Notes under the pieces: generated by a model | What the model was told of the DNA's origin: nothing | Database searches by the model: none | What the model saw: only the letters and a program-made list of their open reading frames with translations | Part shown: positions 1,612 through 50,376 of the stretch, piece after piece | How the letters are laid out: the number at the start of each line of letters is the position of its first letter | Numbering within the stretch: position 1 is the first letter of the stretch | Source: Dehalococcoidales bacterium | Lineage (GTDB): Bacteria > Chloroflexota > Dehalococcoidia > Dehalococcoidales > Fen-1064 | DNA length: 64,000 nucleotides | Assembly: GCA_020342155.1 (NCBI GenBank) | Contig: CP070842.1 | Span: 555,930-619,929, forward strand | Reading direction: 5' to 3' | Position numbers and translations under genes: made by a program

Positions 1612-1666
1612 AAGCCTCTTCTATCTCCATCTAATGTGATTAAGCAAACCAATTATATCACCCCTG

Positions 1667-3256: not shown

Positions 3257-3459
3257 AACTGAGAACTCCTTTCTGTTATTGTGCCGTCTTACTAATAATA
3301 TCAAAAGATTGCGGTAAAAACAAGGCCTTATTTTGCCGCTTCATGGACTGACTGTGTCAGAAGAATGCCCTGGATCAGCTTTTTCTCGAAAAGTACCGGA
3401 ACCATAGCACCACAGCCCCTGAACCAAGGCCTAAATGGTCAAATTTCAGGAAGTTATTA

Positions 3460-21347: not shown

Positions 21348-22826
21348 TCAGGCACTGACCGGCAGGTAGACGGTGAAGGTAGAGCCTTTCCCTACTTCGC
21401 TTTCAACCTCTATCCTGCCGCCGTGGCGCTCGATAATACCGTGAGCTACGGATAGCCCCAGGCCCACCCCCCTGACTTCTTTCTTGGTATGGAAAAAGGG
21501 AGTGAACAACTCATCCATGTTCTCAGGGGCTATACCACATCCGGTATCCCGAAAGCTCACACGGATATCACCATCCTCATCCAGTGAGACGCTAACAGTA
21601 AGTTTGCCTCCTTCAGACATCGCCTCGATAGCATTGGCTGCCAGATTGACGAATACCTGTCGGAGCTGTTTGGAATCGGCCATTATGACCGGTAGCGGAG
21701 TTATCTCTTCTCTCGATACCTTAATACCCTTTATCTGGGCCTGGTGGTCAACCATCGACACGACCTGAGCAATAATGCTATTCACTTCCACTGGCTGTAA
21801 CACTGGCTCTGTCTGGGAGGCAAAATCAAGGAGGCTATGTACCAGCACAGAACAGTATGTGACAGCCTCTTCAATCTTTAGCAGGCTGGTGATGGTCTCA
21901 TCTTTATTAAACGATCCACGTTCCATTTTCTTACTGAGCAATTTGGTATACGTCAAGGCTCCAGCTAATGGATTGTTTATTTCATGGGCTATGGCAGACG
22001 ACAATTGACCAAGCGCATCCATCTTTTCGGTCTGGACTAACTGCCTCTGGGTACTTCGTAGTTGCTCGATGTAGCTATTCAGTTCTTCATTCAGTGACAG
22101 CAACTCCTCATAAGTAAGCCTTCTGGGAGTAATTGCTTGTGTCTCTTTTTGCGAGTCTATTGCCAGGGAATCCCGTCGGCTAGCCAGTTCAGCCAGCCTG
22201 CGCTGGATTGTGTCTTCGACCGTTTGCCCGAATTCACAGGTGGCACACTGAAAACCGTGGGTGCAGAGTCGATATGAGATAATACCCTCGGCGGCATAGT
22301 GGCAAAGCCCACTATTATCAGGAGGGTTATTGATTGTCCCTAGTGCTGTATCAGACTCTGTTATGCTCTCCTGTGTTATCTTCTCATGCATCATCCGGTC
22401 AAATTTACAGGTAATGCAATCGTGGTTACGTGTGCAGATTTGATGGGATACTACACCGAGCTTCATCCAGACACACTCTTCAGGCTTCACCCCACCACTG
22501 GCAGTTTCAGGATCAGCTTCTGACTTGGCCAACTCGTCTTTCGTTCTCTGTAGCCAGATACGTGTTTCGATATTACCGGGAGCAATTTTAAGAATGGCTT
22601 CGAATTCATCTTGAGCCTCTTGATAACGCCCCGTTTCAAAGTGGGCCTTACCCTGCTCATGGTGGGCCCGGATATTTTTTGGCACCATGGCTATGACCTG
22701 CTCATCAGACAGTTCGACTGTAGCCGTATTTTCAGCCGTTTCCTCGTCCATCACCTTATCTTCCCCTGTGGTCACAGCTTTCTTTCTCTCCACCTTAATT
22801 CTACTGTATTGATTATCAACCGCCAT
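21348..22826 (-). CDS. Sensor histidine kinase: TPR-like helix pair + 2x Cx12Cx5Cx2C module + HisKA + HATPase_c
   Basis: H-box SSAIAHEINNPL with N/G boxes in the C-terminus. Cys modules at aa 118-140 and 175-197. Confidence 0.85.
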   Translation of the reverse strand: MAVDNQYSRIKVERKKAVTTGEDKVMDEETAENTATVELSDEQVIAMVPKNIRAHHEQGKAHFETGRYQEAQDEFEAILKIAPGNIETRIWLQRTKDELAKSEADPETASGGVKPEECVWMKLGVVSHQICTRNHDCITCKFDRMMHEKITQESITESDTALGTINNPPDNSGLCHYAAEGIISYRLCTHGFQCATCEFGQTVEDTIQRRLAELASRRDSLAIDSQKETQAITPRRLTYEELLSLNEELNSYIEQLRSTQRQLVQTEKMDALGQLSSAIAHEINNPLAGALTYTKLLSKKMERGSFNKDETITSLLKIEEAVTYCSVLVHSLLDFASQTEPVLQPVEVNSIIAQVVSMVDHQAQIKGIKVSREEITPLPVIMADSKQLRQVFVNLAANAIEAMSEGGKLTVSVSLDEDGDIRVSFRDTGCGIAPENMDELFTPFFHTKKEVRGVGLGLSVAHGIIERHGGRIEVESEVGKGSTFTVYLPVSA

Positions 22827-23082
22827 CTGATATGCAGCTTATTATGGGCTACCTGCCATGCCTAATTAGAAAACTGTTTGACTAGGCATACTCTACAAAC
22901 AGATACGCCGAGATTACACTCGTAAGTGCATGCTTTGAGAGAGAAGAGAATACCTGAAGACTAATAAAAATACCAGAGGTCTTACAGTTAGAAAGGATGA
23001 CAAATCAAATCAGGTAGGCAGAATATATACAGATACTATACGCAGCACCCGCAATTGAATCATGCACACGGAGCAATAAAGA

Positions 23083-23742
23083 TTACGGCAGGTCTTTCAG
23101 AGTGAGCCAGCCTTTTCTAAACCCGAATAATATTGCTTCAGTACGTGAAGCTACTTCGAGCTTATTGAAAATACTCCCCAGATGGGTCTGAACGACATTC
23201 AAACAAAGGACGAGGCGCTCTGCAATATCATTGTTACTTACACCTTTAGCAACTAATTTCAGCACCTCTACCTCGCGCTCGTTGAGCGGTTCGGTTCCCG
23301 GGACTCCGGCTGGGGTCGGAGATATCAGATGCTCTATAACTCGACGGGCGACTACGGGGTGAAGTACTGCCTCGCCGGCGTACACTGCCCGAATAGCATC
23401 AATCAGTTCATAGATTTTCAGACCCTTCAGCAAGTAGCCAGCTGCTCCCGCTTCTAAGAGGGCAAAAATGTACTGGTCGTAATCATAAGCGGTGAGTACC
23501 AGTACGGCTATGGATGGCTGCAGCTCCTTTATCCTTTTCGTGGCTTCTATGCCATTGAGCTTGGGCATATGGACATCCATTATGACCACATCTGGCTTCA
23601 GCTCCGTGGCTAGCCTGACAGCCTCTTCACCATCACCGGCTTCACCAACTACTTCCATATCTTCTTCACGCTGCACCGACGCACGAGTCAATTCCCGTAC
23701 CATAACGTGGTCTTCGGCCAGTAAAACCCTGATAGTATACAT
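23083..23742 (-). CDS. NarL/LuxR-family response regulator
   Basis: REC (LLAEDH...DVVIMDVHMPKLNG) plus C-terminal LuxR HTH (LNEREVEVLKLVAKGVSNNDIAERL). Confidence 0.9.
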   Translation of the reverse strand: MYTIRVLLAEDHVMVRELTRASVQREEDMEVVGEAGDGEEAVRLATELKPDVVIMDVHMPKLNGIEATKRIKELQPSIAVLVLTAYDYDQYIFALLEAGAAGYLLKGLKIYELIDAIRAVYAGEAVLHPVVARRVIEHLISPTPAGVPGTEPLNEREVEVLKLVAKGVSNNDIAERLVLCLNVVQTHLGSIFNKLEVASRTEAILFGFRKGWLTLKDLP

Positions 23743-23822
23743 TACATTCCCAAATTTACAGTTAGCCTACCGTCGTTATCAAGCGTAAAGCAAGGGAAGC
23801 CATACCCATTTGTATGAGTATA

Positions 23823-24824
23823 CTACGTAGAAGCACCCTCCTCGATCAAGGCGTAGTGGGGTGGGAGCGCCCCGGTAGGACAAATAGCAAAGCACTCTTT
23901 ACAGTCAGCGCATTCTTTGCTGGCTATCTCTGGGAAAAACATGACCTCCCGTTCCGTTCCTCTACCAATAAAGCCTATGGCGTTTTTACCCTTCACCTCA
24001 GCACAGTAACGCACGCATAAACCACATAGAATACAGAAATTCGGTTCTACTTCGAACTTGGTTTCACTTGCCCCGCTTAGCTCGTAATTTCCTTTCGACT
24101 CCAACCCGGATATACCGTATCTCATTCCGTAATTCACCAGTGGTTGGACACCAGGGGCCCGAGCCCACATCAACTCCAACAGCATTTTACGGATTTTAAC
24201 TACCTGTTCCGATTCTGTCTTGACTATGAGTCCATCCTCAACAATGTAGACGCATGAAGTAACCAAACGCGATCTTTGCCCTCTGATTATCTCCACTATG
24301 CACAACCGACAGGCACCATAAGGTGACAGTTTCTCATGGTGACAGAGGGTAGGAATGTCAATTCCAATACTCTGTGCCGCCTCCAGAATGGTCGCCCCTT
24401 GTCGGACCTCAACCTCTCTGTCATCGATAACACAGGTAACGGTCTCCGGTCTTATCTCAACCTGGACCGGCCCCAGAGTCTGGCTAACCAGTTTCTCCAG
24501 ATCATTAAGGTCAAAGGGCTTGGGCAGATAATCAATAACCCCCTCTTTCATCGCCTCTACCGCTGTCTGGACAGAAGGGTAAGCAGTAATAATAATGCCA
24601 TTAAGCTGTGGCTGTTTCGCCCTGGCCTTCCTTAGTACCTCAAGCCCATCTGCTCCCGGCAACCTCAGGTCGAGGATGAGAAGTCCATAGTCCTGCTCCT
24701 CGATTGCTTTCAGCGCCTCGTCCCCTTGCGTGGCACTTTCCACCTGATAACCACCATCGGTTAGCCAGTCCTGGAGCGACTCTCTCATAATCGCTTCGTC
24801 TTCTACTATCAGAATCGGTTTCAT
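23823..24824 (-). CDS. REC domain fused to a NuoG/HydA-N-terminal-like [2Fe-2S] domain plus 2x[4Fe-4S] ferredoxin domain
   Basis: MKPILIVEDE...DLRLPGADG receiver; Cx10Cx2Cx15C (CHHEKLSPYGACRLC...C) 2Fe-2S pattern; CILCGLCVRYC and CADCKECFAICP motifs. GAGGAGG RBS. Confidence 0.8.
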   Translation of the reverse strand: MKPILIVEDEAIMRESLQDWLTDGGYQVESATQGDEALKAIEEQDYGLLILDLRLPGADGLEVLRKARAKQPQLNGIIITAYPSVQTAVEAMKEGVIDYLPKPFDLNDLEKLVSQTLGPVQVEIRPETVTCVIDDREVEVRQGATILEAAQSIGIDIPTLCHHEKLSPYGACRLCIVEIIRGQRSRLVTSCVYIVEDGLIVKTESEQVVKIRKMLLELMWARAPGVQPLVNYGMRYGISGLESKGNYELSGASETKFEVEPNFCILCGLCVRYCAEVKGKNAIGFIGRGTEREVMFFPEIASKECADCKECFAICPTGALPPHYALIEEGAST

Positions 24825-24853
24825 TCGTCTACCTCCTCTTATTTCTCCTCAGC

Positions 24854-26764
24854 TTATCCACGCACGACTTCAGTGCCTTGTGCAACAAATTCTGGTACTT
24901 CCACACCGGAAAGTACAGTAATGGCGCCAAAACGAGCGGGACAAACCTCAAGACAAGTCCCGCACTTGGTGCATTTCTCCTGGTCTATTATATGGATTAG
25001 ATTTTTCCCACCGTCGATAGCCCCTACCGGGCAATTCCTCAGACAAATCATGCACGCCTGACACTTCTCCGGCTCTATCCAGTAATTTATCAACGCCTTA
25101 CAGACACCGGCCGGGCACTGCTTCTTCATAATATGAGCTTCATACTCATCCCGGAAGTACCTGAGCGTGCTCAGCACTGGATTGCAGGCCGTCTGTCCCA
25201 GTGCGCAAAGTGCCGAGTCTCCAAGCACCTCCGGTATTTCGTCCAGCAGCTTAAAGTCTTCTTCGCTGCTTTCCCCTTCGCAAATTCTATTCAGCACCTT
25301 AAGCATCTGGTATATCCCCTCACGGCAGGGCAAACACTTACCACAAGACTCCCCGGCGAGGAAGTTAATAAAATACCTGGCCACATCCACCATGCAGGTG
25401 TCCTCATCCATGACGATCATGCCGCCCGAGCCCATCATAGAACCTACTTTAGTGAGCTCATCGAAATCTACGGGGAGGTTAAGGAACTTATCCGGGATAA
25501 CTCCCCCCGAGGGGCCACCGGTCTGGACTGCCTTGAACTTCTTTCCATCAGGAATTCCACCGCCGATATCGTAAATCACCTCTCGGAGTGTCATTCCCAT
25601 AGGCACTTCAACCAGCCCGGTATTTTTCACCTTGCCAACCAGGGAGAAAATCTTTGTGCCCTTACTGCCTTCGGTCCCGATGTTGGTAAACCATTCAGCA
25701 CCGTTGTTGATAATGAGAGGTACATTGGCCCAGGTCTCCACATTATTCAGATTACTGGGTCTATCCCAGATACCGCTAACCGCAGTGCGGATATATTTCG
25801 GTCTGGGTTCACCAACCCTGCCCTCTATTGCTGTCATTAAAGCACTGGATTCACCCGATACAAAGGCACCAGCACCTCGGTGTATTTTAACGTCAAAATT
25901 AAAACCGGAGCCGAGAATATCCGAACCCAGAAGACCGAGTTCTCGTGCTTGCTCTAGAGCAATATTTAGATTCCCCACAGCTAAGGGATATTCCTGCCGC
26001 ACATAGATGAACCCCTCATGTGAGCCAATAGCGTAGGCACCGATAATCAGGCCTTCCAGTACGCTGTGAGGATTACCCTCAAGAAGGCTCCTGTCCATAT
26101 AGGCCCCAGGGTCGCCTTCGTCAGCATTTACGATAACGTATTTTCTCTCGCCTGGTGCGTCGCGGGTGGTCTCCCACTTTCTTCCAGCCGGGAAACCGCC
26201 ACCCCCTCTGCCCCTTAGATTAGACTCTTTTACCTCTTCCATAACCTCTTCAGGTGTCATCTCTAAAAGGGCTTTTGCCAGGGCGGCATAGCCACCAAGC
26301 GTAATGTAGTCCTCTATATTCGTAGGGTCGATGAGCCTGTTATTGCCAAAAATAACCCGGCTCTGGTGTTTATAGAAGGGTATCTCGCTCTCATGCGCGA
26401 TCTTTTGACCGTCATCATCCTCATACAGCAGACGGTCAACTACCTTCTTTTCGACTAATGTTGTAGAAACAATCTCAGGGACATCATCCGACCTTACTCT
26501 CAGATAGCATATTTCTTCAGGAAAGATGACTACCAAGGTACCCTTCTCACAGAAACCATGGCACCCCGTCCGGCGGATATCCACCTTCTCTTGAAGTCCG
26601 TTACTCTGGATATTGGCAACAAAGGCCTCGGCAACCTTTTCACTGCCGTAAGCATGACATCCCGTACCTGAACAAATGGTTACACATGGTTTGTTTGGGT
26701 CTCTCTTGGCTAGTATTTCCTGTCTTAAGTTCTCCAGGTCAGCGGCTGAGTTTAATCTGCCCAT
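24854..26764 (-). CDS. NuoF/HydB-like NAD(H)-binding FMN Fe-S subunit (N-terminal thioredoxin-like 2Fe-2S, C-terminal 2x[4Fe-4S])
   Basis: GRGGGGFPAGRKW (FMN), GAGAFVSGESSAL (NADH), ESCGKCLPCREG (N3 cluster), CQACMICLRNCP and CTKCGTCLEVCP. Confidence 0.9.
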   Translation of the reverse strand: MGRLNSAADLENLRQEILAKRDPNKPCVTICSGTGCHAYGSEKVAEAFVANIQSNGLQEKVDIRRTGCHGFCEKGTLVVIFPEEICYLRVRSDDVPEIVSTTLVEKKVVDRLLYEDDDGQKIAHESEIPFYKHQSRVIFGNNRLIDPTNIEDYITLGGYAALAKALLEMTPEEVMEEVKESNLRGRGGGGFPAGRKWETTRDAPGERKYVIVNADEGDPGAYMDRSLLEGNPHSVLEGLIIGAYAIGSHEGFIYVRQEYPLAVGNLNIALEQARELGLLGSDILGSGFNFDVKIHRGAGAFVSGESSALMTAIEGRVGEPRPKYIRTAVSGIWDRPSNLNNVETWANVPLIINNGAEWFTNIGTEGSKGTKIFSLVGKVKNTGLVEVPMGMTLREVIYDIGGGIPDGKKFKAVQTGGPSGGVIPDKFLNLPVDFDELTKVGSMMGSGGMIVMDEDTCMVDVARYFINFLAGESCGKCLPCREGIYQMLKVLNRICEGESSEEDFKLLDEIPEVLGDSALCALGQTACNPVLSTLRYFRDEYEAHIMKKQCPAGVCKALINYWIEPEKCQACMICLRNCPVGAIDGGKNLIHIIDQEKCTKCGTCLEVCPARFGAITVLSGVEVPEFVAQGTEVVRG

Positions 26765-26835
26765 GACTCTCTCCTCTTTTTCAATCTCACTTAATAGACA
26801 CTCCGAACAGCGTTTGCTTTCCTATTCTCCATAGC

Positions 26836-27303
26836 CTATTCGCAAGTATCAGCAATCTCATCAAGTTCTTTCCTGGAAGGACTGCTATGATATTCCTCAT
26901 CGACTACCATCACCGGTCCCAGGGCACAGCAGCCAAGACAGTTTACTGTTTCCAGACTGAAGCGCATGTCATCCGAGGTCTCACCCGGTTTAATCTCTAA
27001 TTTCTCTGTTACTCTATCCAGGAGGCGAGGTGCACCACGCACCTGGCAGGCAGTCCCTAAACAGACCGATACCGAGTGTCGTCCTCTTGGTGTCAGACTG
27101 AAGGCTTTATAGAAAGTAGCTATATGATAGATTTGGCTCAAGGGAATTCCGAGCCTCTGGCTGGCCTGCATAAGGGCATCCCTGGGCAACCAGCGGTTTT
27201 CGTGCTGAATGTCGAGAAGCACCTGAATCAGAGAAGACTTGTCACCCTTATATTTGTCTATGATTTCATCGGTTTGAGCAACATCCTGGACCATCTTATT
27301 CAT
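26836..27303 (-). CDS. NuoE/HydC-like [2Fe-2S] subunit
   Basis: CLGTACQVRG...CLGCCALGPV pattern; 155 aa. Confidence 0.9.
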   Translation of the reverse strand: MNKMVQDVAQTDEIIDKYKGDKSSLIQVLLDIQHENRWLPRDALMQASQRLGIPLSQIYHIATFYKAFSLTPRGRHSVSVCLGTACQVRGAPRLLDRVTEKLEIKPGETSDDMRFSLETVNCLGCCALGPVMVVDEEYHSSPSRKELDEIADTCE

Positions 27304-27309
27304 ACCTCC

Positions 27310-28371
27310 TTAGTTTTCACCCCAGTAAGACCACCACCAACTAAGCTCTTTTTTATGTGAAGCCTCTTGTCGGGCGGCCAGCTCGACTGCTCTTTTTGCT
27401 AGCTTCTGCTGGAGGGCGTCGTCCATCATTTGTCCGAATTCACAGGTCTCGCACTGGTAGATACGGGAGCAGAGGCGGTAGGACACGTCATTCTTAAGAG
27501 CATAGCGACACAACCTCTGACTGCCGGGTAACGCCAGTAGTTTTTCCATGGCTGCATCAAGTTCAGAGGAGTCACCGCTAGCCAACTTGTCCTGCATCTC
27601 CTGGTCAAACTCACATGTCATGCAGTCGTAGTTGTTAGTGCAGACGCGATAAGACACCATCCCCATGCTCATCCAGACGCATTGTTTAGGTTTTTCTTCC
27701 CCTGGAGCCAATGCTTCAGTCTCAGGTTCGGCCAGCGTCCTTTTTATCTTCTGAATCCAGACCCTGTTCTCGATATTAGCCGGAGCAACTTCCAGGATAG
27801 CCTGAAATACCCTTAATGCCTCTATGTATCTGCCAGCTTCGAAGAGAGTCTTACCCTGCCTGAGGTGGCCTGGAACCTCCTCAGGAATAACAGCGATAAC
27901 CTCCTCGACCCGAACCTCCTCGACAACAACCTCCTCAACCTTGACCTCTTCTACCTTAACTGGCTCGTCTATAATCTCCTTAGTACCTGCCCGCGGTGTT
28001 ATTTCAATCTGTACCGGCCCGAGAGTCTCCCTGATTAGCTTCTCCATTTCATTAAGGTCAAAAGGCTTGGGCATATAATCAACAGCCCCTATTTTCATCG
28101 CCTCTACGGCTGTCTCAACTGAAGGATAGGCAGTAATGATGATTCCCTTGAGTTGGGGCCTTCTCTCTTTAGCTTCCCGCAATACCTCAAGCCCGTCTTT
28201 CCCCGGCAGCCTCAGGTCAAGAACGACAACACCGAAGTCATGTTCCTCGATAGTTTTCAGTGCTTCACTCCCCTCCTCTGCAGTTTCTACCTGATAGCCC
28301 CCATCCTTGAGCCAGTCTTTTAAAGACTCTCTCATAATTGCTTCGTCTTCTACTATCAATATCGGTTTCAT
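27310..28371 (-). CDS. REC domain + (K/V/R)VEEV repeat linker + TPR-like helix pair + 2x Cx12Cx5Cx2C module
   Basis: The receiver is nearly identical to that of 23823..24824. Cys modules at aa 238-260 and 295-317 (numbered from ORF start 28392). Start set at MKPILIVEDE (ATG 28369-28371, GGGGG 7 nt upstream). Confidence 0.75.
   Translation of the reverse strand: MKPILIVEDEAIMRESLKDWLKDGGYQVETAEEGSEALKTIEEHDFGVVVLDLRLPGKDGLEVLREAKERRPQLKGIIITAYPSVETAVEAMKIGAVDYMPKPFDLNEMEKLIRETLGPVQIEITPRAGTKEIIDEPVKVEEVKVEEVVVEEVRVEEVIAVIPEEVPGHLRQGKTLFEAGRYIEALRVFQAILEVAPANIENRVWIQKIKRTLAEPETEALAPGEEKPKQCVWMSMGMVSYRVCTNNYDCMTCEFDQEMQDKLASGDSSELDAAMEKLLALPGSQRLCRYALKNDVSYRLCSRIYQCETCEFGQMMDDALQQKLAKRAVELAARQEASHKKELSWWWSYWGEN
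27898..27957 (-). repeat. 4 x 15-nt in-frame tandem repeat encoding KVEEV-KVEEV-VVEEV-RVEEV
   Basis: Plus strand reads aacctcctcgac-type units with 15-nt periodicity. Confidence 0.8.
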
Positions 28372-28449
28372 CTTCTCGCCCCCTTCACTCATTTTTTAAC
28401 TCCTTAAGACAACTAGCTCGTCTATCTGATAACTCCCACACTATTATCA

Positions 28450-28466
28450 TGCAATTTTCTCGCCAA
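28450..28466 (-). promoter_or_regulatory. Sigma-54 (-24/-12) promoter: TTGGCGAGAAAATTGCA
   Basis: The reverse complement of 28450..28466 matches TGGCAC-N5-TTGCW at GG-N10-GC with TGGC and TTGCA intact (2 mismatches, AC to GA). It lies ~80 nt upstream of the REC/Cys-rich gene, with sigma-54 and a sigma-54 activator encoded immediately upstream. Confidence 0.65.
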
Positions 28467-28471
28467 AGAAT

Positions 28472-28500
28472 AAGGCTGCCCTGATATTTAGGGCAGCCTT
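28472..28500 (-). terminator. Perfect 11-bp inverted repeat (AAGGCTGCCCT-N7-AGGGCAGCCTT): terminator of the ntrC-like gene, or an activator site
   Basis: GC-rich hairpin 42 nt after the stop of 28542..29903, followed on the minus strand by AUUCUUU. It lies only 5 nt upstream of the -24 element. Confidence 0.5.
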
Positions 28501-28541
28501 CTCTACGATTCAAACAGATACTATCTATGTAAAGGAATCAT

Positions 28542-29903
28542 TCAGCGAGTGCCTATTTTTTTTACATCCAATCCATACGCCTTAATTTTATTATAGAGAG
28601 TCATTCTCGCGATTCCTAAGACCGCGGCAGCTTCACTGTAGTTGCCGTTGGTCTCAGTGAGTACATGCAGAATGTGGTTCTTCTCAACCTCATCAAGACT
28701 TTTGCCTGCCAGTGTTACCCTTACTAACTGCGAGTTTTCCTGAACCAGATCTCCCACCTCGATACAGGCATTTTTAGATAAAATGACCGCTCGCTCAATT
28801 GCGTTTTCTAGCTCTCTAACATTGCCAGGCCACTCATATTTTAGGAGAAAATCGGTAGCCTTTGGAGAATATTCGGTGATTTCCTTCTGGTTCTCCGTGG
28901 CAAACTTCTCCAGGAAGTACTGGGCTAAGAGAGGTATATCTTCTTTTCTCTCTCTTAATGGAGGCAGGTCAATCGAAACTACGTTCAAACGATAATAAAG
29001 GTCTTCACGAAATGTTTCATCGGTCACGGCCCTCTTAATATCTTTATTTGTCGCTGAAACAACCCTGACATCAGTCTTAACCAGTTCGTTACCACCAACC
29101 CTGGTGAATTCCTTCTCTTCCAGTACTCTCAACAGGTGACCCTGAATATTAGCACTCATGTCACCAATCTCATCCAGAAAGAGAGTGCCTTTATTAGCGA
29201 CCTCGAACTTACCCTTTTTTTGCGCATAAGCTCCGGTGAAGGACCCCTTTTCATGGCCAAACAGTTCACTCTCTAGAAGACTCTCAGGCAAGGCAACGCA
29301 ATTAACGGCGACAAATGGCTTACTCCGACGATGACTCTGGGAGTGAATAGAGCGGGCCACAAGTTCCTTGCCGGTGCCACTCTCACCTGTAATCAATACA
29401 GTAGCATTGCTCCTGGCTACAACCTTAATTATCTCAACTACCTGTTGCATCTTGGGACTTTTAGCGGTGATATTTTCAAATTCGTAACGCTCCTTTAGCT
29501 TCTTGTGCAAGGAAATGTTCTCCTCAACCAATCCCTGATGCTCAACCAATTTCTCAAGTAGAATCGCCAACCTTTCTGGGCAGAAAGGCTTCTCGATATA
29601 GTCATAGGCACCTTCTCTCATAGCAGAAATGGCGGTTGGGATGCTCGCGAAAGCGGTAATGATTATCACGTTAACAACCGGGTTCATCTCCTTTGCTTTC
29701 TTCATAAACTCTATCCCATCCATACCCGGCATCACGAGATCACTAATGATAATCCCTATCTGCTCCTCTTCCAGTATCTCCAGGGCTTGAGAGCCGCTCT
29801 CCGCAGTAAACACATGATAACCGGCATCATTTAGCCAGTCACAAAGCGATTCGCGAACAATAGCTTCATCGTCAACAACGAGGATATTAGCTTCTCTACT
29901 CAT
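28542..29903 (-). CDS. NtrC-family sigma-54-dependent response regulator (REC + AAA+ + Fis-type HTH)
   Basis: GESGTGKE Walker A, GSFTGA (GAFTGA-type sigma-54 contact loop), C-terminal HTH ...AAAVLGIARMTLYNKIK. Confidence 0.9.
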   Translation of the reverse strand: MSREANILVVDDEAIVRESLCDWLNDAGYHVFTAESGSQALEILEEEQIGIIISDLVMPGMDGIEFMKKAKEMNPVVNVIIITAFASIPTAISAMREGAYDYIEKPFCPERLAILLEKLVEHQGLVEENISLHKKLKERYEFENITAKSPKMQQVVEIIKVVARSNATVLITGESGTGKELVARSIHSQSHRRSKPFVAVNCVALPESLLESELFGHEKGSFTGAYAQKKGKFEVANKGTLFLDEIGDMSANIQGHLLRVLEEKEFTRVGGNELVKTDVRVVSATNKDIKRAVTDETFREDLYYRLNVVSIDLPPLRERKEDIPLLAQYFLEKFATENQKEITEYSPKATDFLLKYEWPGNVRELENAIERAVILSKNACIEVGDLVQENSQLVRVTLAGKSLDEVEKNHILHVLTETNGNYSEAAAVLGIARMTLYNKIKAYGLDVKKIGTR

Positions 29904-31836
29904 GGTAAGCCTCCAAGCGGACAGTAAAGGTAGTTCCCTCCCCCTCTTTACTATCTACCTCAATTCTTCCCTGATGTCGTTGGATAATTCCATAGGCCAC
30001 AGCTAGTCCTAAACCTACCCCTTTACCCTTCTCTTTTGTGGTAAAGAAGGGAGTAAAGAGCTTGTGCAGGTTTTCTTGAGAGATACCTGACCCTGTATCC
30101 TGAACCTCTATCTTAATCTGGTCGTCATTAACTACTGAGGTACGGAGGACTAACTCACCCCCCTTTGACATTGCTTGGATGGCATTCATGATAAGGTTTG
30201 TAAGAACCTGATGAAGCTGGTCAAAATCAGCCATGACTTTAGGCAAGTCAGGGCTATATTCTTTTCTCACCTCAACATTCTGCAGACCGGCCTGGTGACC
30301 AATGATGTTAAAAGCTCGCTCGATAACCTGGTTTATGTCTACCAGCCTGAGGGTTGGTGTTGACTGGCGAGCAAAATCCAAGAGATTACGAATTAACCTG
30401 GAACTACGGGTAAGCTCTGAGTCCATTTTTGTCAGGTAGTCCAGCGATTTTTCCTTACTGATGGTATTATTAGATATGTTTTTCTCCAGCAACTTGGTAT
30501 AGACAAGGACACCGGCCAGAGGATTATTGACCTCGTGAGCAATAGAGGCTGCCATCTGGCCTAAGGAGGTTAGCTTCTCGGCCTGGATAAGGTCTTCCTG
30601 AGTAGCCTCCAGTTTCTTGAGTAAATAAGGCCAACACATATTAATCTCTGCCAATTCCTGGCCGATGGCAACAGCCAACTCTCTACAGGAAGCGTAACCA
30701 CAAGCTCCACAATCCATCCGGTAACTGGGACTAACCCTGCCAATTTGCTCAAGGAGACCTCTGACTTCTTCTTCGCTGGGAGTTGGTAGGTAGATACTGC
30801 GCCCAGTAAATTTACGGTTGAGGTCAATCGTAGCGTAACGCTCGATGTCCTTCTCAGTCTGGGTGGGGTCTACATTACTCCGAGCGTATCTAGCAATAAG
30901 CTCCTTTCGACTAAAACCGCTTAGTTCATTATCAATAAACGGTCCATCAATACACCCGTGACAAAAATACAGATTAGCAAATCTAGCAGTGATGTCACCT
31001 TGAGCAAATTCCCCAAGAATCTTGACAACATATTCCCTACCGTGAACACTCATGACATCATTCTTCATTATGTCATCAGTTAATCCCATAACCTTAAGCA
31101 GGCCGCCTGATATGGCAAATAGCCGACCAAGCTTGGATATAGGGCCAGCAAACTGCTCGTCCTGCTCACTGCTCGGGACAATTCCTTTATCAGCAAACAT
31201 TTCCTTTAATTCCGTAAAGGTTAGCACAGCATCCACCATACCATCAGCATTCTTATCGGCGATTTCTGCTTTCTTAGCAACACACGGACCAATGTAGACC
31301 ACCTTAGCCTGCGTGTTGTGATATTGCTTGATTATTCTACCCATGGCAATTGTAGGTGAAACAATGGGTGCCAGATTACTGAGTAGTGAGGGATGGTACT
31401 TCTCGATGTAGGTTACTACCGCCGGGCAGTTAGATGAGATTATAGGCCCGTCTTTAACTTCGTCTAGTAGTTGGATGTATTCCCCACTGATTAGCTCGGC
31501 ACCGAAGGCTGCCTCCATCACATTGCTGAATCCCAGCTTCTTAAGAGAGGTTACAAATTGCCCAGGCTTACAATTGAGCAAGGCAGCTGGGAAGGAAGAG
31601 GAAACTACAGCTACCACATCAGGGTGGTTAGCCAATAGCTGCCGAACTAATTCGACATCGCTCTCCGCTTGCTTTGCCCCGGTAACACAGACACGTATAC
31701 AGTTGCCACAATCAATACAACGTTCCTTTATTACCTCAGCCAACCCTTCTCTTATCTTGATTGCCTTAGTCGGACAGTGACGTACACAGGCGTAGCACCC
31801 CTGACACTTCTCTCGGTCGGTATAGACAACGCTCAT
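29896..31836 (-). CDS. Histidine kinase with N-terminal 2x[4Fe-4S] + [FeFe]-hydrogenase H-domain-like sensor + Cx2Cx4Cx16C motif
   Basis: CQGCYACVRHCP and CIDCGNCIRVC; H-cluster-type motifs SSNCPAV, IGPCVAKKAE, FCHGCIDGP; CGACGYASC-x16-C; then SIAHEVNNPL H-box and an HATPase_c domain. Confidence 0.8.
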   Translation of the reverse strand: MSVVYTDREKCQGCYACVRHCPTKAIKIREGLAEVIKERCIDCGNCIRVCVTGAKQAESDVELVRQLLANHPDVVAVVSSSFPAALLNCKPGQFVTSLKKLGFSNVMEAAFGAELISGEYIQLLDEVKDGPIISSNCPAVVTYIEKYHPSLLSNLAPIVSPTIAMGRIIKQYHNTQAKVVYIGPCVAKKAEIADKNADGMVDAVLTFTELKEMFADKGIVPSSEQDEQFAGPISKLGRLFAISGGLLKVMGLTDDIMKNDVMSVHGREYVVKILGEFAQGDITARFANLYFCHGCIDGPFIDNELSGFSRKELIARYARSNVDPTQTEKDIERYATIDLNRKFTGRSIYLPTPSEEEVRGLLEQIGRVSPSYRMDCGACGYASCRELAVAIGQELAEINMCWPYLLKKLEATQEDLIQAEKLTSLGQMAASIAHEVNNPLAGVLVYTKLLEKNISNNTISKEKSLDYLTKMDSELTRSSRLIRNLLDFARQSTPTLRLVDINQVIERAFNIIGHQAGLQNVEVRKEYSPDLPKVMADFDQLHQVLTNLIMNAIQAMSKGGELVLRTSVVNDDQIKIEVQDTGSGISQENLHKLFTPFFTTKEKGKGVGLGLAVAYGIIQRHQGRIEVDSKEGEGTTFTVRLEAYHE

Positions 31837-32951
31837 TAGTCCCCCTCACTTTCATACCGAACATACTTACTCTTGCACCGAGAAGCAGGCAATCTCAGCT
31901 CTTTCCTCAGGTCGGCCACCGAGCGACGAGAGATGGTCACACCGAATTTTTCCTGCAGCTCAGTCTTTATCGCGTCATCTGAGGAAAGTCCTTCCTCGGT
32001 TTCAAGAAGTTGTTTGATTAGTTCTTTCTTAAACTTCTTCGATCTGGGGAAAAAGTGCTTAAGGGGAACCTCTGTACCCAAAGGTGTCTCTAGGCTTTTC
32101 CTGTTGATGGCACGACTAACAGAGCTGGGAGCAAGCCCAATTTTCTCAGCCAGTTCTTTCTGACTGAAGGGTAATAGAGATTTAGGATCACCACACTCCA
32201 GATATAACGCTTGCTTATCAACAATACCCTGCAGTATTTGACTTACCGTGTCCTTGCAGCTATTAACTGATTCTAGTCTCTTGAATAGCTGCTTAGCTTC
32301 ACTGACCTCAGTCTCAGTGAAAACCCCTCTTACCCTCAACTCCTCAAAGCTTCCGTAATCAATCCGATATCTTCCCCGGGCAAAGGGGGCGGATAAGTAT
32401 CCAATAGTAAAGCTATCCCCCCGTCTCTCTACCGAGGCAATTTTAGAATAGCGAATTTGCTCTGAACTGAAAGCGGAGGGATGATAGAACTCACTTAGAA
32501 TAGAGAAGTCATTGACAAGGTCATTTATCTCTCGGACTTCTGAAATACTCAGACCACATTCCTCAGCAATCTCTTCCAGGACCATCCCTGACTCAGGAAA
32601 CAAGAAGTAACGCTTGAATTTCTCCAGTCCCAACTTCTCTACTAGACGAACGATTCGCGCCTTGTTTTCTAGAAGGGATTCCACGTCAAGAGAGCCTTTG
32701 TCGGCTGTGGTTTCTTCTCTAAGCTGAAAATATTGGGATGAAATATCGGTCTTGGGAACTCTCTGGTAATGGATGAGTTTCTCTTCCTGATAAAGCCTCA
32801 CAAAGAGAGGAGTTTTTTCTAGCTCGATGACAAGCTGAATGAAGGTTTGCTCAGGCATTTCCAGCAACTTGGCCTGTTCTATGAGGAAGACTTGTTTTAA
32901 TTCCTGCCTGATTTGTTGGGATTGTCTTTGCTCTGTTATCATACTAGGCAT
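31836..32951 (-). CDS. rpoN: Short (371 aa) sigma-54 (RpoN) family sigma factor
   Basis: Gln-rich region I (EQRQSQQIRQELKQ...LLEMPEQTF..ELEKTPLF), HTH (LAPSSVSRAINRKSLETPLGTEVPLKHFF), and an RpoN-box-like GVTISRRSVADLRKELRLP. Overlaps the kinase start by 1 nt. Confidence 0.8.
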   Translation of the reverse strand: MPSMITEQRQSQQIRQELKQVFLIEQAKLLEMPEQTFIQLVIELEKTPLFVRLYQEEKLIHYQRVPKTDISSQYFQLREETTADKGSLDVESLLENKARIVRLVEKLGLEKFKRYFLFPESGMVLEEIAEECGLSISEVREINDLVNDFSILSEFYHPSAFSSEQIRYSKIASVERRGDSFTIGYLSAPFARGRYRIDYGSFEELRVRGVFTETEVSEAKQLFKRLESVNSCKDTVSQILQGIVDKQALYLECGDPKSLLPFSQKELAEKIGLAPSSVSRAINRKSLETPLGTEVPLKHFFPRSKKFKKELIKQLLETEEGLSSDDAIKTELQEKFGVTISRRSVADLRKELRLPASRCKSKYVRYESEGD

Positions 32952-32960
32952 TGTAAAAAT

Positions 32961-32989
32961 ATTTTACTACTCCTGTGATGTATTGTCAA
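32961..32989 (-). promoter_or_regulatory. Sigma-70 promoter TTGACA-N17-TAAAAT, only 9 nt upstream of the rpoN-like ATG (near-leaderless)
   Basis: The reverse complement gives TTGACA (32984..32989), a 17-nt spacer and TAAAAT (32961..32966). ATG at 32949..32951, no SD sequence. Confidence 0.45.
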
Positions 32990-33147: not shown

Positions 33148-33951
33148 TCACCCTCGTCCTTCCACAATTGGTGATCGGTCGGAGTTGAGAACGGCAACAA
33201 GAAGGTAGATTCCCCCAGCATATTGTGCGGCTCTTCCAATCCATGCAACTAGACCCTCGACAGAACCCAGAAATATAAAGATGGAGCCCTGGGCAAAAAG
33301 TGATACACCAAGGAAACACCAGAAACGAAAGGCTGTTTGCGACCTGGAATACATCCATAGGTAGACAAACGATGAAACAAGAAAAAGGACTATTGTTGTT
33401 ATTCTAACAGCGCTTCTGAGAAGTACACTCTTTTCGGGTACATAGAATGAGGGAATCACGCCCCTAAACGCGAGTAGGGTAACTACAGCGATGCCGGCGA
33501 TTATCCCCAAGTAGCACAGAAGCACAATCTGAGATCTTCGCCAAAATTCTGGATTGGCCAGATGTGGTTTGGTCACTTCCACGACAGCTCCAGTCAAATA
33601 CAGGGCTGAAGCTATCAAAGCTGCACCCTCATTTGCAGTAATACGGGTATTCAACTCCTCAGCTGGCAGCCACCCGTAGAACAGACTACCAGCACCTAAG
33701 GCCAGTACACCGCAGCCAAGCCATAATACCTGTGACGAAATCGAAACCGCCGCTCTCCTTGCCGCAACATAGGCTACAAGCACCGCAACCGCAGAGATGA
33801 ACACCGTGTTGAGTATATTAATCGGTAAAGGGAGATCGTAGACCTCAACGATATCGACGATATCGAGGCCGACGAAGATAACGCCAAGCGCCGCAATGAT
33901 AAGAACTATACCTAGTGCGAATCCCTTTAACATGTCGGCATCTCGTGGCAA
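33148..33951 (-). CDS. Polytopic membrane protein of unknown function (~7 TM)
   Basis: Hydrophobic segments throughout; no recognisable catalytic motif. Confidence 0.5.
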   Translation of the reverse strand: MPRDADMLKGFALGIVLIIAALGVIFVGLDIVDIVEVYDLPLPINILNTVFISAVAVLVAYVAARRAAVSISSQVLWLGCGVLALGAGSLFYGWLPAEELNTRITANEGAALIASALYLTGAVVEVTKPHLANPEFWRRSQIVLLCYLGIIAGIAVVTLLAFRGVIPSFYVPEKSVLLRSAVRITTIVLFLVSSFVYLWMYSRSQTAFRFWCFLGVSLFAQGSIFIFLGSVEGLVAWIGRAAQYAGGIYLLVAVLNSDRSPIVEGRG

Positions 33952-34167
33952 TAATAGTACAGACTACGTATTGATGACAACCTTAACGCCCATCAATCAC
34001 GAAAAGGAGCACCCGTCTTTCTCAGAATACGGCACCTACGATGAAAGGAGACGGTTCTGCGAGACCGTGTTCAAATGCCCCCACATACAGGGTAGCAATA
34101 TCTTAAGGAAAGACCGAAATGAATGCCTTCGTTTTTATTAACACGAGGGGGGTACAATATGTTGAAA

Positions 34168-34179
34168 TGGTGGGCGGTA
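34168..34179 (+). repeat. 12-bp copy (TGGTGGGCGGTA) of the tRNA-Val 3' end: candidate distal att remnant
   Basis: Identical to 56868..56879 (complement of the tRNA-Val acceptor 3' strand plus CCA), same orientation, exactly 22,700 bp away. A GAACCT follows at a shifted offset. Confidence 0.35.
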
Positions 34180-34636
34180 CTGGACAATAGGTAGAACCTT
34201 TGAGTTAGATTTCTCACTGCCTGTCTAGAGAATACCTAACAATCAGACTGACCGTTTAGATATTCACCTTTTTACTTTTTATGTCCTTACGCCCATTTTT
34301 GTCAATTAACTATATTAGATGTTAAGAGATTACATTATTGGCGGGTTTACGTAATCATAGTATAGATCCAGGCGGGTTTCTTTGAGGTTCTCTAGTATTC
34401 TCAGAAATATACAAGAAATCGGCAATTGTCATCACTGCCAACCAATGTGCCATTCACCACGCTATAGGCATAGGTAGTTTGACCTCCCCGAGATGCTTGG
34501 TTTTACCTATTGCACCTCATGCTTTTCGGGCTCTTTTGTCATCAGAGGACAGGCAAAGTAGTCGATGATGTTTCACCATCACGATGATAGTCTTTAAGTA
34601 GACAGGAAACCAGATAACCAAGAAAGGAGGATAGCC

Positions 34637-34747
34637 ATGGAAGGAGTACTACTACAAACAATACATATCGTAACAAAACTTGGCATACCTCTGATTATTC
34701 TCTTCTTGCTGGGATTTATTATCAATTCACGACCAAGGTATGGTTGA
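34637..34747 (+). CDS. Small (36 aa) single-TM protein
   Basis: AAGGAGG 6 nt upstream of the ATG. Sequence MEGVLLQTIHIVTKLGIPLIILFLLGFIINSRPRYG. Confidence 0.4.
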   Translation: MEGVLLQTIHIVTKLGIPLIILFLLGFIINSRPRYG

Positions 34748-34777
34748 GAATCAGGTCTAATAAAGGAGGTGAAATCA

Positions 34778-34969
34778 ATGGAGACTGTACTGACAATCCT
34801 GATGTTCCTGGGAATTTACGTCGTCTTTCCTCTACTCGTAGCCACTATCGTGTGCGGTATAGCCCTGTTGGCGAGACGTCGTGCTAGGAGTGTGGAGATA
34901 GCCAAACGTGCCAAGGCTCCGACTGCAGCCAAGAAGGTAGGGCTCGCTCATCATCCTGCTAAGACTTAG
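34778..34969 (+). CDS. Small (63 aa) single-TM protein with basic tail, tandem paralog A1
   Basis: AAGGAGG-N8-ATG. The first 31 codons differ from A2 by 8 synonymous and 1 nonsynonymous change. Confidence 0.7.
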   Translation: METVLTILMFLGIYVVFPLLVATIVCGIALLARRRARSVEIAKRAKAPTAAKKVGLAHHPAKT

Positions 34970-34999
34970 TACGAGATTATCAATAAGGAGATGAAATCA

Positions 35000-35182
35000 A
35001 TGGAGGCTGTACTGACAATCCTGATGTTCCTGGGAATCTACGTCGTCTTTCCCCTACTCGTGGCCACCATCGTATGTGGTATAGCTCTGCTGGGGAAGCG
35101 GCGTGCTACGAGGGCCGCAAGGGCTAAAGCCCCAGCAGCCAGAGAGGCCGAAGAACTCACCCATGAGCCTGCTAAGGCGTAG
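35000..35182 (+). CDS. Small (60 aa) single-TM protein with basic tail, tandem paralog A2
   Basis: AAGGAG-N9-ATG; METVLTILMFLGIYVVFPLLVATIVCGIALL core shared with A1. Confidence 0.7.
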   Translation: MEAVLTILMFLGIYVVFPLLVATIVCGIALLGKRRATRAARAKAPAAREAEELTHEPAKA

Positions 35183-35215
35183 CGAGTGAACGGTAGCGGA
35201 TGATAAAACTCCGGC

Positions 35216-35257
35216 AGAGACCCCTGGTTTGAGTTAAACTCCCAGCCAGGGGTCTCT
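35216..35257 (+). terminator. Perfect 12-bp stem hairpin after the small-ORF cluster
   Basis: AGAGACCCCTGG...CCAGGGGTCTCT with an 18-nt loop. No clear U-tract, so intrinsic termination is uncertain. Confidence 0.4.
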
Positions 35258-35259
35258 CT

Positions 35260-35351
35260 ATGCACACATTGCGTAACGGCATAATGGGTCAGGTGTGCAG
35301 TCTGGAATGGGTCTCGTGGCGGATGAACGTGCCTCTGCCTGATGGTAACCT
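35260..35351 (+). promoter_or_regulatory. Conserved promoter/operator module, copy C5 (-35 ATGAAC 35323..35328; TGn-TAACCT -10 at 35346..35351)
   Basis: Shares blocks ATGCACACATTGC / GTCAGGTGTGC / GGAATGGG / CGTGGCGGATGAAC and the exact 17-nt spacer with the copies at 46935, 49477 and 56410. Lies 16 nt upstream of the fdnH-like ATG. Confidence 0.65.
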
Positions 35352-35366
35352 GATTAATGATACATC

Positions 35367-40768: not shown

Positions 40769-40796
40769 AGCATCTCCAGTGTATCTACGTATGAAG

Positions 40797-43467: not shown

Positions 43468-43468
43468 G

Positions 43469-46400: not shown

Positions 46401-46483
46401 CCTTTCGTGTCAAAGGTGAGCACCGCTGCGGCACCGATTCCCGCCCCCGAGAACTTCAGAAAGTCTCTACGGTTTAGTCTCAC
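43469..46483 (-). CDS. fdnG: Tat-exported, selenocysteine-containing formate-dehydrogenase-type molybdopterin subunit (FdnG-like); in-frame TGA at 45920..45922
   Basis: ORFs 45920..46483 and 43469..45898 are in the same frame (3015 nt). RRDFLK Tat motif and CCYCSVGCG [4Fe-4S] motif. Junction reads EHCARL-TGA-HSSTVASLAESFGRGAMTNHW, the conserved Sec/Cys active-site context. A hairpin follows the TGA. Confidence 0.85.
45876..45922 (-). promoter_or_regulatory. UGA(Sec) codon plus putative SECIS hairpin
   Basis: mRNA reads UGA-CACU-CCUCUACC-G-UCGCC-AGUUU-GGCGG-AGAGUUUU-GGUAGAGG. The 8-bp lower stem and 5-bp upper stem start 4 and 13 nt after the UGA. Confidence 0.55.
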
Positions 46484-50364: not shown

Positions 50365-50376
50365 GGAAGGTCACCG

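Follow-up and report, generated by a model that had tools for sequence, protein, structure and literature searches.

Introduction

In Cupriavidus necator, the HoxBC-HoxJ-HoxA system links an H2-sensing [NiFe]-hydrogenase to a histidine kinase, an NtrC-family regulator, and a sigma-54-dependent promoter. Here, we describe a locus with the same logic, in which a hydrogenase-like sensor leads to a kinase, an NtrC-family regulator, and a sigma-54-type promoter. The locus belongs to a Dehalococcoidales bacterium and lies within a stretch of 64,000 nucleotides (assembly GCA_020342155.1, contig CP070842.1, positions 555,930 to 619,929), which we refer to as the window and to which all unlabeled coordinates refer. 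Unlike the Hox system, it has a sensor of the unrelated [FeFe] type that forms part of the kinase itself (HK1), the sigma-54-like factor is encoded in the same operon, and the apparent targets are not hydrogenase structural genes but electron bifurcation (Bfu) and other oxidoreductase modules that carry receiver domains. We regard it as more likely than not that these genes form a two-tier unit, in which an H2- or redox-responsive kinase, a private sigma-54-like factor, and an NtrC-type activator serve a receiver-tagged Bfu cargo.

Sensory [FeFe]-hydrogenases offer the closest comparison for HK1. A list of features is available for the putative sensory groups C and D, among them the replacement of M353 by glycine in TmHydS (Land et al., PMC8163306), and HydDB recognizes a subgroup C1 described as "histidine kinase-linked (putative)" (PMC5037454), of which we found no characterized member in the searchable literature. 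HK1 resembles these proteins in its two N-terminal [4Fe-4S] clusters, its retained cluster cysteines, the loss of the proton-relay cysteine, the glycine at the M353 position, and a Cx2Cx4Cx16C motif (PMC8163306, PMC5037454), and, like group C sensory hydrogenases, it is encoded beside a Bfu-type enzyme. Unlike the neighbor of group C systems, however, that enzyme has no H-cluster. Characterized group C [FeFe]-hydrogenases, such as those of the TmHydS type, end in a PAS domain, whereas HK1 lacks one and its sensor module passes directly into the DHp and catalytic domains of a kinase. Its output is also defined, in contrast to that of group C sensory hydrogenases, as an NtrC-type activator, a private sigma-54-like factor, and one conserved promoter.

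The redox proteins of the locus are best compared with the Bfu family. In Type 2 Bfu enzymes, BfuA carries clusters A1, A2, and A4 only, and a separate module oxidizes the third substrate; Por-Bfu and Mbh-Bfu enzymes of this kind are predicted in Dehalococcoides (Schut et al., PMC9304861). The structure of WorABCSL from Acetomicrobium mobile shows the ABC core attached like a "plug" to a catalytic module that is separate from it, with WorA as a short A subunit of 247 amino acids (PMC12318220). As for transcription, sigma-54 is present in only some Chloroflexi (Francke et al., PMC3162934). The sigma-54-like protein of the locus shares with RpoN systems a C-terminal helix-turn-helix (HTH) and an RpoN-box-like motif, a TGGC-N7-TTGC element with canonical spacing, and a GAFTGA-type activator. 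It differs from RpoN in its size (about 365 amino acids), in the lack of a recognizable core-binding domain, and in scoring below family cutoffs. Its gene shares an operon with one kinase and one activator beside an apparent single local target, an arrangement closer to an extracytoplasmic function (ECF) sigma factor cassette than to a global rpoN.

Three parts of the locus are of kinds already known, namely, a putative group C1 sensory hydrogenase, an NtrC/sigma-54 pair, and a Type 2 Bfu. Three others appear to be new: canonical receivers fused to BfuA and, in relatives, to BfuC and to NfnB-like and NfnA/AsrAB-like oxidoreductases; a divergent sigma-54-like factor of about 365 residues that shares one operon with its own kinase and activator; and an unclassified module of tetratricopeptide repeats (TPR) and eight cysteines (TPR-Cys8) that occurs on receivers and on a kinase. 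Within the incomplete coverage of the literature that could be searched, we found no description of receiver-fused NuoE, NuoF, or Bfu proteins, of this sigma-54-like cassette, or of the Cys8 module, nor of the system under either sigma-54 or sensory hydrogenases in Dehalococcoidia; the searchable Bfu literature mentions neither "receiver" nor "response regulator." A first-pass annotation of the sequence knew of no description of the full arrangement. We found none of the whole either, but the class of the H-domain kinase already has its place in HydDB as C1 (PMC5037454).

If the most far-reaching form of our model, which we consider doubtful, is true, the locus would be the first known case both of a bifurcating enzyme switched by phosphorylation and of a "private" sigma-54 cassette. 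Because the H-domain is wired straight to a kinase, the partner regulator is obvious, and a single target promoter is conserved in more than 40 species, it becomes directly testable in vitro whether such proteins sense H2. The receivers fused to BfuA, BfuC, and Nfn-like proteins point to a possible posttranslational switching of bifurcating enzymes. Sigma-54 is rare in this phylum, and a sigma-54-like factor of about 365 residues would widen the definition of a sigma-54 system. In the abundant uncultured Dehalococcoidia of sediments and the subsurface, sequence seldom reveals a regulatory circuit, and this cassette is an exception.

Locus organization

Nine open reading frames (ORFs), all on the minus strand and arranged head to tail, span positions 21348 to 32951. 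These ORFs, a sigma-70-like promoter, a hairpin, and a -24/-12 element had been proposed in the first-pass annotation, and all were recovered at the same positions. Pfam and NCBIfam likewise bore out each of the domains it had proposed, and we retain its two-tier layout, in which a constitutive-looking regulatory operon is followed by a terminator, a sigma-54 promoter, and an effector operon.

The regulatory operon begins with the gene for the sigma-54-like protein (31836 to 32951, 371 amino acids; Pfam Sigma54_DBD, 1e-22). It continues with HK1, a soluble kinase of 646 residues (29896 to 31836; two Fer4 domains, Fe_hyd_lg_C at 7e-50, the FeS domain PF04060, HisKA, and HATPase_c), and with an NtrC-type enhancer-binding protein (28542 to 29903; a receiver domain [REC], Sigma54_activat at 4e-74, and HTH_8). 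The stop codon of the sigma-54-like gene overlaps the HK1 start by 1 nucleotide (nt) in the sequence TAATG, and HK1 and ntrC overlap by 8 nt. The effector operon opens with a REC-TPR-Cys8 protein (27310 to 28392), in which Pfam recognizes only REC and TPR. Its stop codon lies 6 nt from the start of BfuC, with GGAGG inside the gap. BfuC is a NuoE/HoxE-like protein of the thioredoxin-like [2Fe-2S] type (26836 to 27303; 2Fe-2S_thioredx, 5.5e-49) and is followed by BfuB, a NuoF-like FMN/NADH subunit (24854 to 26764; Complex1_51K, NADH_4Fe-4S, SLBB, and two Fer4 domains), and by REC-BfuA (23823 to 24824; REC, Fer2_4, and Fer4). A NarL/LuxR-type response regulator (23083 to 23742; REC and GerE) comes after an intergenic gap of 80 nt and is probably a separate unit; a further gap of 256 nt precedes HK2, the second histidine kinase (21348 to 22826; TPR, HisKA, and HATPase_c).

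The sigma-70-type promoter TTGACA-17-TAAAAT (32961 to 32989, minus strand) is the best such site of the region (11/12). It ends 9 nt ahead of the ATG of the sigma-54-like gene, and there is no Shine-Dalgarno sequence; on both grounds, the mRNA of this first tier is predicted to be leaderless, and it probably is. The arrangement TTGACA-N16-18-TAAAAT-ATTTATACA-ATG is kept in at least 22/29 related loci, with N17 as the form in the window. At the other end of the operon, an intrinsic terminator (28472 to 28500, minus strand) with an 11-pair stem (7 GC) and a T-tract is the best terminator-like site of the region; it closes the regulatory operon and abuts the -24 element.

That element, TGGCGAGAAAATTGCA (28450 to 28465, minus strand), has its GG and GC 11 nt apart and lies about 58 nt upstream of the ATG at 28392, with the ribosome-binding site AAGGAG in between. 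It is the single match to TGGC-N7-TTGCW in the 64 kb, where 1.28 matches are expected by chance, so that its significance comes not from rarity but from its position and its conservation in about 42/46 loci. It differs by one mismatch from the family consensus TGGCAAGAAAATTGCA, which stands directly after the hairpin and T-tract behind ntrC in those loci as an almost invariant 16-mer with variable flanks. The sequence of the hairpin stem differs between relatives, and its complementarity and trailing Ts are kept. A constant 16-mer next to a hairpin that varies but remains paired is the pattern of a terminator followed by a protein-recognized promoter; for the same reason, we rejected the hairpin as a binding site for the activator. 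Tandem -24/-12 elements precede the first cargo gene in six loci, spaced about 56 to 66 nt apart in L022, L027, L038, L041, and L053 and 123 nt apart in L007.

Conserved copies of the TGGCAAGAAAATTGCA type are confined to the position behind ntrC in 771 kb of related loci, and the other -24/-12-type matches in that sequence fall within ORFs or are palindromes at gene ends. A recurring TGGCA(A/T)AGCCTTTGCT was considered as a promoter and rejected, since it is a palindrome at a gene end and is read as a hairpin. Further conserved sites were sought, for example, upstream of the GltD-like genes of about 1,100 codons described below, and none was conserved. The NtrC-type activator itself consists of REC, an AAA+ domain with a GSFTGA loop, and a Fis-type HTH, and G(A/S)FTGA is present in 44/44 of its orthologues.

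Conservation among Dehalococcoidia

A profile of the sigma-54-like protein was run against one genome per GTDB species, and the domains of all ORFs in the recovered loci were mapped by blastp with the domains of the window as queries. The scan returned 53 loci, nearly all from metagenome-assembled genomes (MAGs) of Dehalococcoidia. The sigma-54-like gene is present in 54 loci and is followed immediately by a kinase gene in 52. This kinase bears the H-domain in 42 loci; in 10 loci it is a membrane kinase with the same DHp helix and no H-domain, and 3 loci have both types. An ntrC gene stands behind the kinase in 46 loci, and the order sigma-54-like gene, kinase, ntrC is found in all 46 that are long enough to show three genes.

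Sequence extends at least 1.3 kb beyond ntrC in 41 loci, which we treat as informative for cargo. The first downstream gene encodes a receiver in 36/41, and a TPR-Cys8 module lies downstream in 32/41; the first gene past the promoter bears the cysteine module (CysMod) as REC-CysMod, CysMod alone, or REC-CysMod-Hdom in 30/41. Bfu genes occur in only 5/41, and in many loci REC-Cys8 proteins are the sole cargo. The cargo of some loci includes a second, short REC-Cys8 protein; elsewhere the receiver is fused to an NfnB/GltD-like flavoprotein (L011, L022, and L027) or to an NfnA/AsrAB-like module with Fer4_22, FAD_binding_6, and NAD_binding_1 (L044, L047, and L049). The conserved unit is thus the regulatory cassette with a receiver-first cargo, in which the Bfu genes can be exchanged for several other kinds of cargo. 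Conservation of the neighborhood, which had been proposed for the locus as a whole, extends to the regulatory core and the first receiver gene but not to the Bfu cargo; the NarL regulator and HK2 were seen solely in the window and its nearest relative.

A separate observation concerns a protein of about 1,100 residues encoded beside the sigma-54-like gene in L006, L008, L012, L014, L017 to L020, L023, L044, L047, L049, and L052. It has FAD/NAD(P)-binding regions, Fer4_20, Pyr_redox_2, and C-terminal ferredoxin clusters, without a receiver or a conserved -24/-12 element.

The hydrogenase-like kinase HK1

The sensor of HK1 consists of two [4Fe-4S] clusters, the H-domain, and a Cx2Cx4Cx16C motif (CGACGYASC-x16-C) and runs straight into HisKA and HATPase_c; the closest solved kinase core is that of ZraS (1.9e-41). 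When HK1 is aligned with solved HydA proteins, SSNCP lies opposite TSCCP and GPCVAKKAE lies opposite MPCxxKxxE. FCHGC occurs further downstream and corresponds to the third H-cluster motif of CpI; the HydA form is CHGGC, and the CHGC of HK1 is one residue shorter.

Relatives of HK1 number in the thousands, and the named ones are from Dehalococcoidia or Dehalococcoidales. Across 161 of them, C137, C185, C292, and C295 are each kept in at least 159, and two are strictly invariant; two of these four cluster cysteines align with the TSCCP and MPC motifs of HydA. The equivalents of the lysine and glutamate (K358/E361) are invariant or nearly so. In contrast, the position of the proton-relay cysteine (C299) is occupied by N, T, S, or H, and the M353 equivalent is a glycine in HK1, as in TmHydS. 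These motifs fit the group C features, and HisKA and HATPase_c lie in the same ORF; by motif and domain content, HK1 is therefore a putative member of C1, a class that has been named and is uncharacterized. On these features HK1 is a probable hydrogen-sensing kinase, with H2 as its predicted ligand.

The sigma-54-like protein

The family to which the 371-residue window protein belongs has a typical size of about 365 amino acids and is conserved along its full length, with a mean column identity of 71%. Its C-terminal half is a sigma-54 DNA-binding domain with an HTH. Sigma54_DBD was found by Pfam in 36/36 relatives, and a profile of the protein matches sigma-54 chains of the PDB over residues 162 to 363, approximately (2e-13). 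The window protein has an RpoN-box-like SRRSVADLR, and 39/50 of the sigma-like proteins have SRRSVAxLR. The N terminus is rich in glutamine and leucine, resembles region I, and contains LLEMPEEEFxxLIxEIExSPLF; matches to Sigma54_AID lie below threshold in 20/36 relatives (best E value, 0.005). Residues 50 to 210 are strongly conserved inside the family and have no sequence match elsewhere. The earlier assignment of a sigma-54 homolog was thus upheld for the DNA-binding half, whereas region I gives weak signals and a core-binding domain could not be recognized.

As a whole protein, the window member scores 88.5 bits against TIGR02395, for which the cutoff is 277.35, and because of this shortfall we call it sigma-54-like rather than RpoN. 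Compact sigma-54 chains in the PDB match list have 329 to 380 residues, comparable to its 371. A Foldseek search with its AlphaFold2 model placed three sigma-54 chains at the top over 246 to 301 columns (template modeling [TM] score, about 0.17), but the model is poor and the result can serve only as a hint. Co-occurrence with a GAFTGA-bearing activator (44/44) and the conserved -24/-12 element suggest that the protein acts as the sigma factor for the adjacent promoter. An NCBI entry from a Dehalococcoidales MAG is 100% identical to it and bears the name [quoted passage not shown]

A second and more divergent protein with Sigma54_DBD (449 amino acids, 6e-9, no other domain) is encoded at L005:1053-2402 on the minus strand, where it is divergently transcribed beside the cassette of one Dehalococcoidales MAG.

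The BfuABC-type cargo

The closest solved relative of BfuB is subunit B of NiFe-Bfu (7t2r_B), which it matches over residues 28 to 615 at 4e-240, followed by WorB (9mqx_B, 2e-225) and HydB (7q4v_B and 8a6t_B, about 1e-216); true NuoF, in comparison, reaches only about 1e-105. BfuB also has an extra N-terminal thioredoxin-like [2Fe-2S] region and an extra C-terminal ferredoxin domain with two [4Fe-4S] clusters. BfuC matches NuoE and HoxE in NCBIfam. The Fe-S part of REC-BfuA aligns with residues 4 to 205 of HydA1 (6e-34) and with WorA (9mqx_A, 1e-32), and its NCBIfam matches are HoxU and the N terminus of FeFe_hydrog_A6. It has thirteen cysteines in total, one [2Fe-2S] and two [4Fe-4S] clusters, and no catalytic domain. 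Pfam finds no NADH-G_4Fe-4S_3 in it, and the region of the His-ligated cluster A3 is replaced in the alignment with WorA and HydA1.

The NuoE/NuoF/REC-FeS trio had been taken for a dismantled hydrogenase, a view that its closest solved relatives contradict; it is better read as a Type 2 BfuABC core. Like WorABCSL and the predicted Por-Bfu and Mbh-Bfu of Dehalococcoides, it combines the extra domains of BfuB, a NuoE-like BfuC, and a short BfuA with A1, A2, and A4. The absence of a catalytic subunit from the operon was correctly observed and is no oddity, because the catalytic module of the Bfu family is normally made of separate subunits (PMC9304861, PMC12318220). The same relationship of BfuB, whose extra domains are of the bifurcation type and which is closest to Bfu B and not to NuoF, led us to set aside the possibility that the trio is the NADH module that an 11-subunit complex I lacks. 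What is unusual for a Type 2 Bfu is the receiver at the N terminus of BfuA (on BfuC in relatives), the absence of the C-terminal Zn-finger and helix with which WorA docks, and the absence of third-substrate partner genes from the operon; REC-BfuA ends 13 residues beyond its last cluster. Bifurcating activity of this core and its use of a third substrate are predicted.

The arrangement BfuC, BfuB, REC-BfuA is shared by the window and its nearest relative and is degraded in L050, and a REC-BfuC fusion with BfuB and REC-BfuA is found in L003, L046, and L055. The REC-BfuA fusion occurs in L001, L003, L046, and L055, and full-length matches to it are few among 50%-identity representatives. L003 continues downstream into genes for ferredoxin and pyruvate:ferredoxin oxidoreductase (POR). 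In L002 (GCA_011170375.1; 17294 to 18022), the public annotation of REC-BfuA starts late, giving 242 amino acids and omitting the receiver; this omission and the "hypothetical protein" label of the sigma-54-like protein render the system invisible in current annotation.

Two side observations bear on Bfu proteins. A metagenome contig encodes, at L058:342-5751, a REC-BfuA fusion of 407 residues, BfuB, and a Fer4_11-BfuC fusion. No sigma-54 cassette is visible there, and further genes on the contig, for an outer-membrane beta-barrel and a protein resembling cytochrome c7, suggest a diderm; receiver-tagged Bfu is thus seemingly not restricted to Dehalococcoidia. In the window itself, a formate dehydrogenase (FDH)-like molybdopterin oxidoreductase (705 amino acids, without a NuoG-type N terminus) overlaps a 561-residue GltD/NfnB-like flavoprotein at 14011 to 17777 on the plus strand. 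The pair lies 3.5 kb past HK2 on the opposite strand and is not beside the cassette in the nearest relative; it is a conceivable Bfu partner.

Receivers and the TPR-Cys8 module

The acidic pocket, phosphoacceptor aspartate, threonine, and lysine (D/D/D/T/K) are intact in every receiver class, and the residues E/D-D, D, T, and K are kept in 4/4 REC-BfuA, 3/3 REC-BfuC, 40/40 REC-Cys8, and 4/4 REC-GltD proteins. The receivers of REC-Cys8 and REC-BfuA in the window had been described as nearly identical; they in fact share 94/125 amino acids (75%) and 288/375 nt (77%). The fused receivers and the NtrC receiver have an alpha-1 helix in common, DEAI(M/V)RESLxDWLxDxGY, from which that of the NarL receiver differs. 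On the kinase side, HK1, HK2, and the membrane kinases share the same H-box and following helix, and their DHp helices are near-identical. The H-box AHE(V/I)NNPLAG noted earlier is present in both window kinases, whose cores are 47% identical. The common H-box and DHp helix, together with the common alpha-1 helix, fit one kinase type that would serve several receivers. The branched phosphorelay that had been suggested is accordingly plausible from the intact receivers, the common alpha-1 helix, and the near-identical DHp helices.

REC-TPR-Cys8 consists of the receiver, an acidic linker of VEE repeats, TPR-like helices, and two C-x12-C-x5-C-x2-C repeats, and all eight cysteines of the module are invariant in the family alignment (A2). 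The same TPR-Cys8 module forms the N-terminal sensor of HK2, where it is 43% identical to that of REC-Cys8 over 199 amino acids. The Cys-rich module first proposed for these proteins is thus present in both but is redefined as TPR-like helices followed by the two cysteine repeats. It occurs behind a receiver, alone, or as the sensor of HK2. It matches no Pfam family, with E values up to 10 giving only TPR and a faint zf-CHY, and its AlphaFold2 model, with a predicted local distance difference test score (pLDDT) of 59 and cysteine repeats below 50, is unfit for fold assignment. Our guess is that TPR-Cys8 is a metal-dependent interaction or redox module.

Model and alternatives

These observations can be joined into a single circuit. 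A constitutive, leaderless operon driven by sigma-70 would supply the sigma-54-like factor, HK1, and the activator. H2, or a closely linked reductant signal, would alter the H-cluster-like site in HK1 and thereby change its autophosphorylation. HK1 would phosphorylate the NtrC-type activator, which would then act at the single downstream promoter by remodeling the RNA polymerase that bears the sigma-54-like factor, and HK1 would also phosphorylate the paralogous receivers on BfuA and REC-Cys8. In this way, an NADH/ferredoxin-linked electron-bifurcation module could be controlled by one signal at two levels, in its amount and in its activity or assembly. HK2 may feed a second signal, sensed by its Cys8 module, into the same receivers. 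The domain content, motif conservation, gene order, promoter/terminator footprint, and intact receiver chemistry are direct observations; H2 as the ligand, the kinase-receiver pairings, the sigma activity of the 371-residue protein, bifurcation with its third substrate, and the effect of receiver phosphorylation are predictions. A more specific form of the model is possible but doubtful: H2-responsive phosphorylation of the receiver on BfuA (or on BfuC in relatives) would gate Bfu assembly or movement of the C1-cluster domain, while HK1 also drives transcription through a minimal sigma-54 with essentially one promoter.

Several results weigh against the circuit as drawn. Pfam detects no Sigma54_CBD in the sigma-54-like protein or its relatives at E values up to 10, residues 1 to 210 have no sigma-54 match by profile against PDB sequences, and the AlphaFold2 model of the protein has a mean pLDDT of only 54. 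The 64-kb window contains no canonical rpoN and no hydE, hydF, or hydG maturase genes. We identified no upstream activator sites. REC-BfuA has no WorA-type docking element, and no genes for a third-substrate module lie within the operon. Finally, because ten loci use a membrane kinase without an H-domain, the cassette is not tied to H2.

The alternatives that we considered concern particular steps and are mutually exclusive neither with this circuit nor with each other. HK1 may not sense H2 at all: its H-domain, occupied by an unusual cofactor or by the [4Fe-4S] subcluster alone, could report redox or Fe-S status, with the rest of the circuit unchanged. The lost proton-transfer cysteine, the shortened third motif, the lack of maturase genes in the window, and the membrane kinases that replace HK1 in ten loci while keeping the same DHp all favor this view, and H-cluster binding has been doubted for some C1 proteins (PMC11406978). 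However, the four cluster cysteines and the diiron-contacting lysine and glutamate are retained across the 161 sequences, and TmHydS and TamHydS, which have the same substitutions, nevertheless bind the H-cluster and react with H2 (PMC8163306). We rate a purely redox-sensing HK1 as rather unlikely. It is less probable still that the 371-residue protein is not a sigma factor but a stand-alone DNA-binding repressor or cofactor that occupies the -24/-12 element while a canonical RpoN encoded elsewhere initiates transcription. Such a role would suit a protein in which only the DNA-binding half is recognizably sigma-54 and which scores far under the NCBIfam cutoff, and L005 has its second, more divergent protein of this type. 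It is harder to square with the region I-like N terminus and its weak Sigma54_AID matches, the conservation of the full length, a size that fits compact sigma-54 chains, the sigma-54 chains returned by Foldseek from the poor model, and, in 46 loci, an operon shared with an activator that has the GAFTGA loop.

The Fe-S and flavin proteins with fused receivers might themselves serve in signaling instead of forming a metabolic enzyme; as phosphate sinks or adaptors under redox control, they would adjust the phosphorelay to the NADH/ferredoxin state. The same receiver is found on very different redox modules and on the nonenzymatic TPR-Cys8, many loci have REC-Cys8 cargo alone, and the third-substrate partner is not in the operon. 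Yet BfuB matches a working bifurcating enzyme with 802 bits over nearly its full length and has all of the cluster domains, which would be unexpected for a mere sensor, and the continuation of L003 into ferredoxin and POR genes is like published Por-Bfu clusters (PMC9304861). We consider a purely signaling role improbable, to the same degree as the nonsigma role above. That the genes are adjacent by chance, or through an artifact of assembly or annotation, is scarcely credible. The NarL and HK2 genes are set off by gaps and recur only in the closest relative, and one public annotation truncates REC-BfuA, but the gene order recurs in 54 independently assembled loci, genes overlap at their start and stop codons, and both the promoter and the terminator are kept among loci. 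These features refute chance or artifact for the core, with NarL and HK2 excepted.

Other features of the window

Two-component systems are unusually dense across the 64 kb. Three more pairs of a NarL-type regulator and a HisKA_3 kinase, one with GAF and two with PAS domains, lie at 39098 to 41459, 49687 to 51843, and 52689 to 54898. The first of these, the GAF-HisKA_3 pair, comes after a gene set on the minus strand (41486 to 46483) in which an in-frame TGA at 45922 to 45924, within the motif LEHCARL-(TGA)-HSSTVA, divides the gene of a molybdopterin oxidoreductase into two ORFs. This oxidoreductase is probably a selenocysteine-containing FDH alpha subunit; behind it are a 4Fe-4S subunit (42661 to 43467) and an NrfD-type membrane subunit (41486 to 42664).

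A second NuoE-like [2Fe-2S] protein (154 amino acids) adjoins a 545-residue protein with a glutamate-synthase-like region at 1147 to 3304 on the minus strand. On the plus strand, two tandem small ORFs of 66 and 63 amino acids (34769 to 35182) have almost identical hydrophobic N termini, MKSME(T/A)VLTILMFLGIYVVFPLLVATIVCGIALL. They lie just upstream of genes for a Fer4_11 protein, a cytochrome b, and a UbiA prenyltransferase, and the interval from 33951 to 35367 is otherwise without a long ORF.

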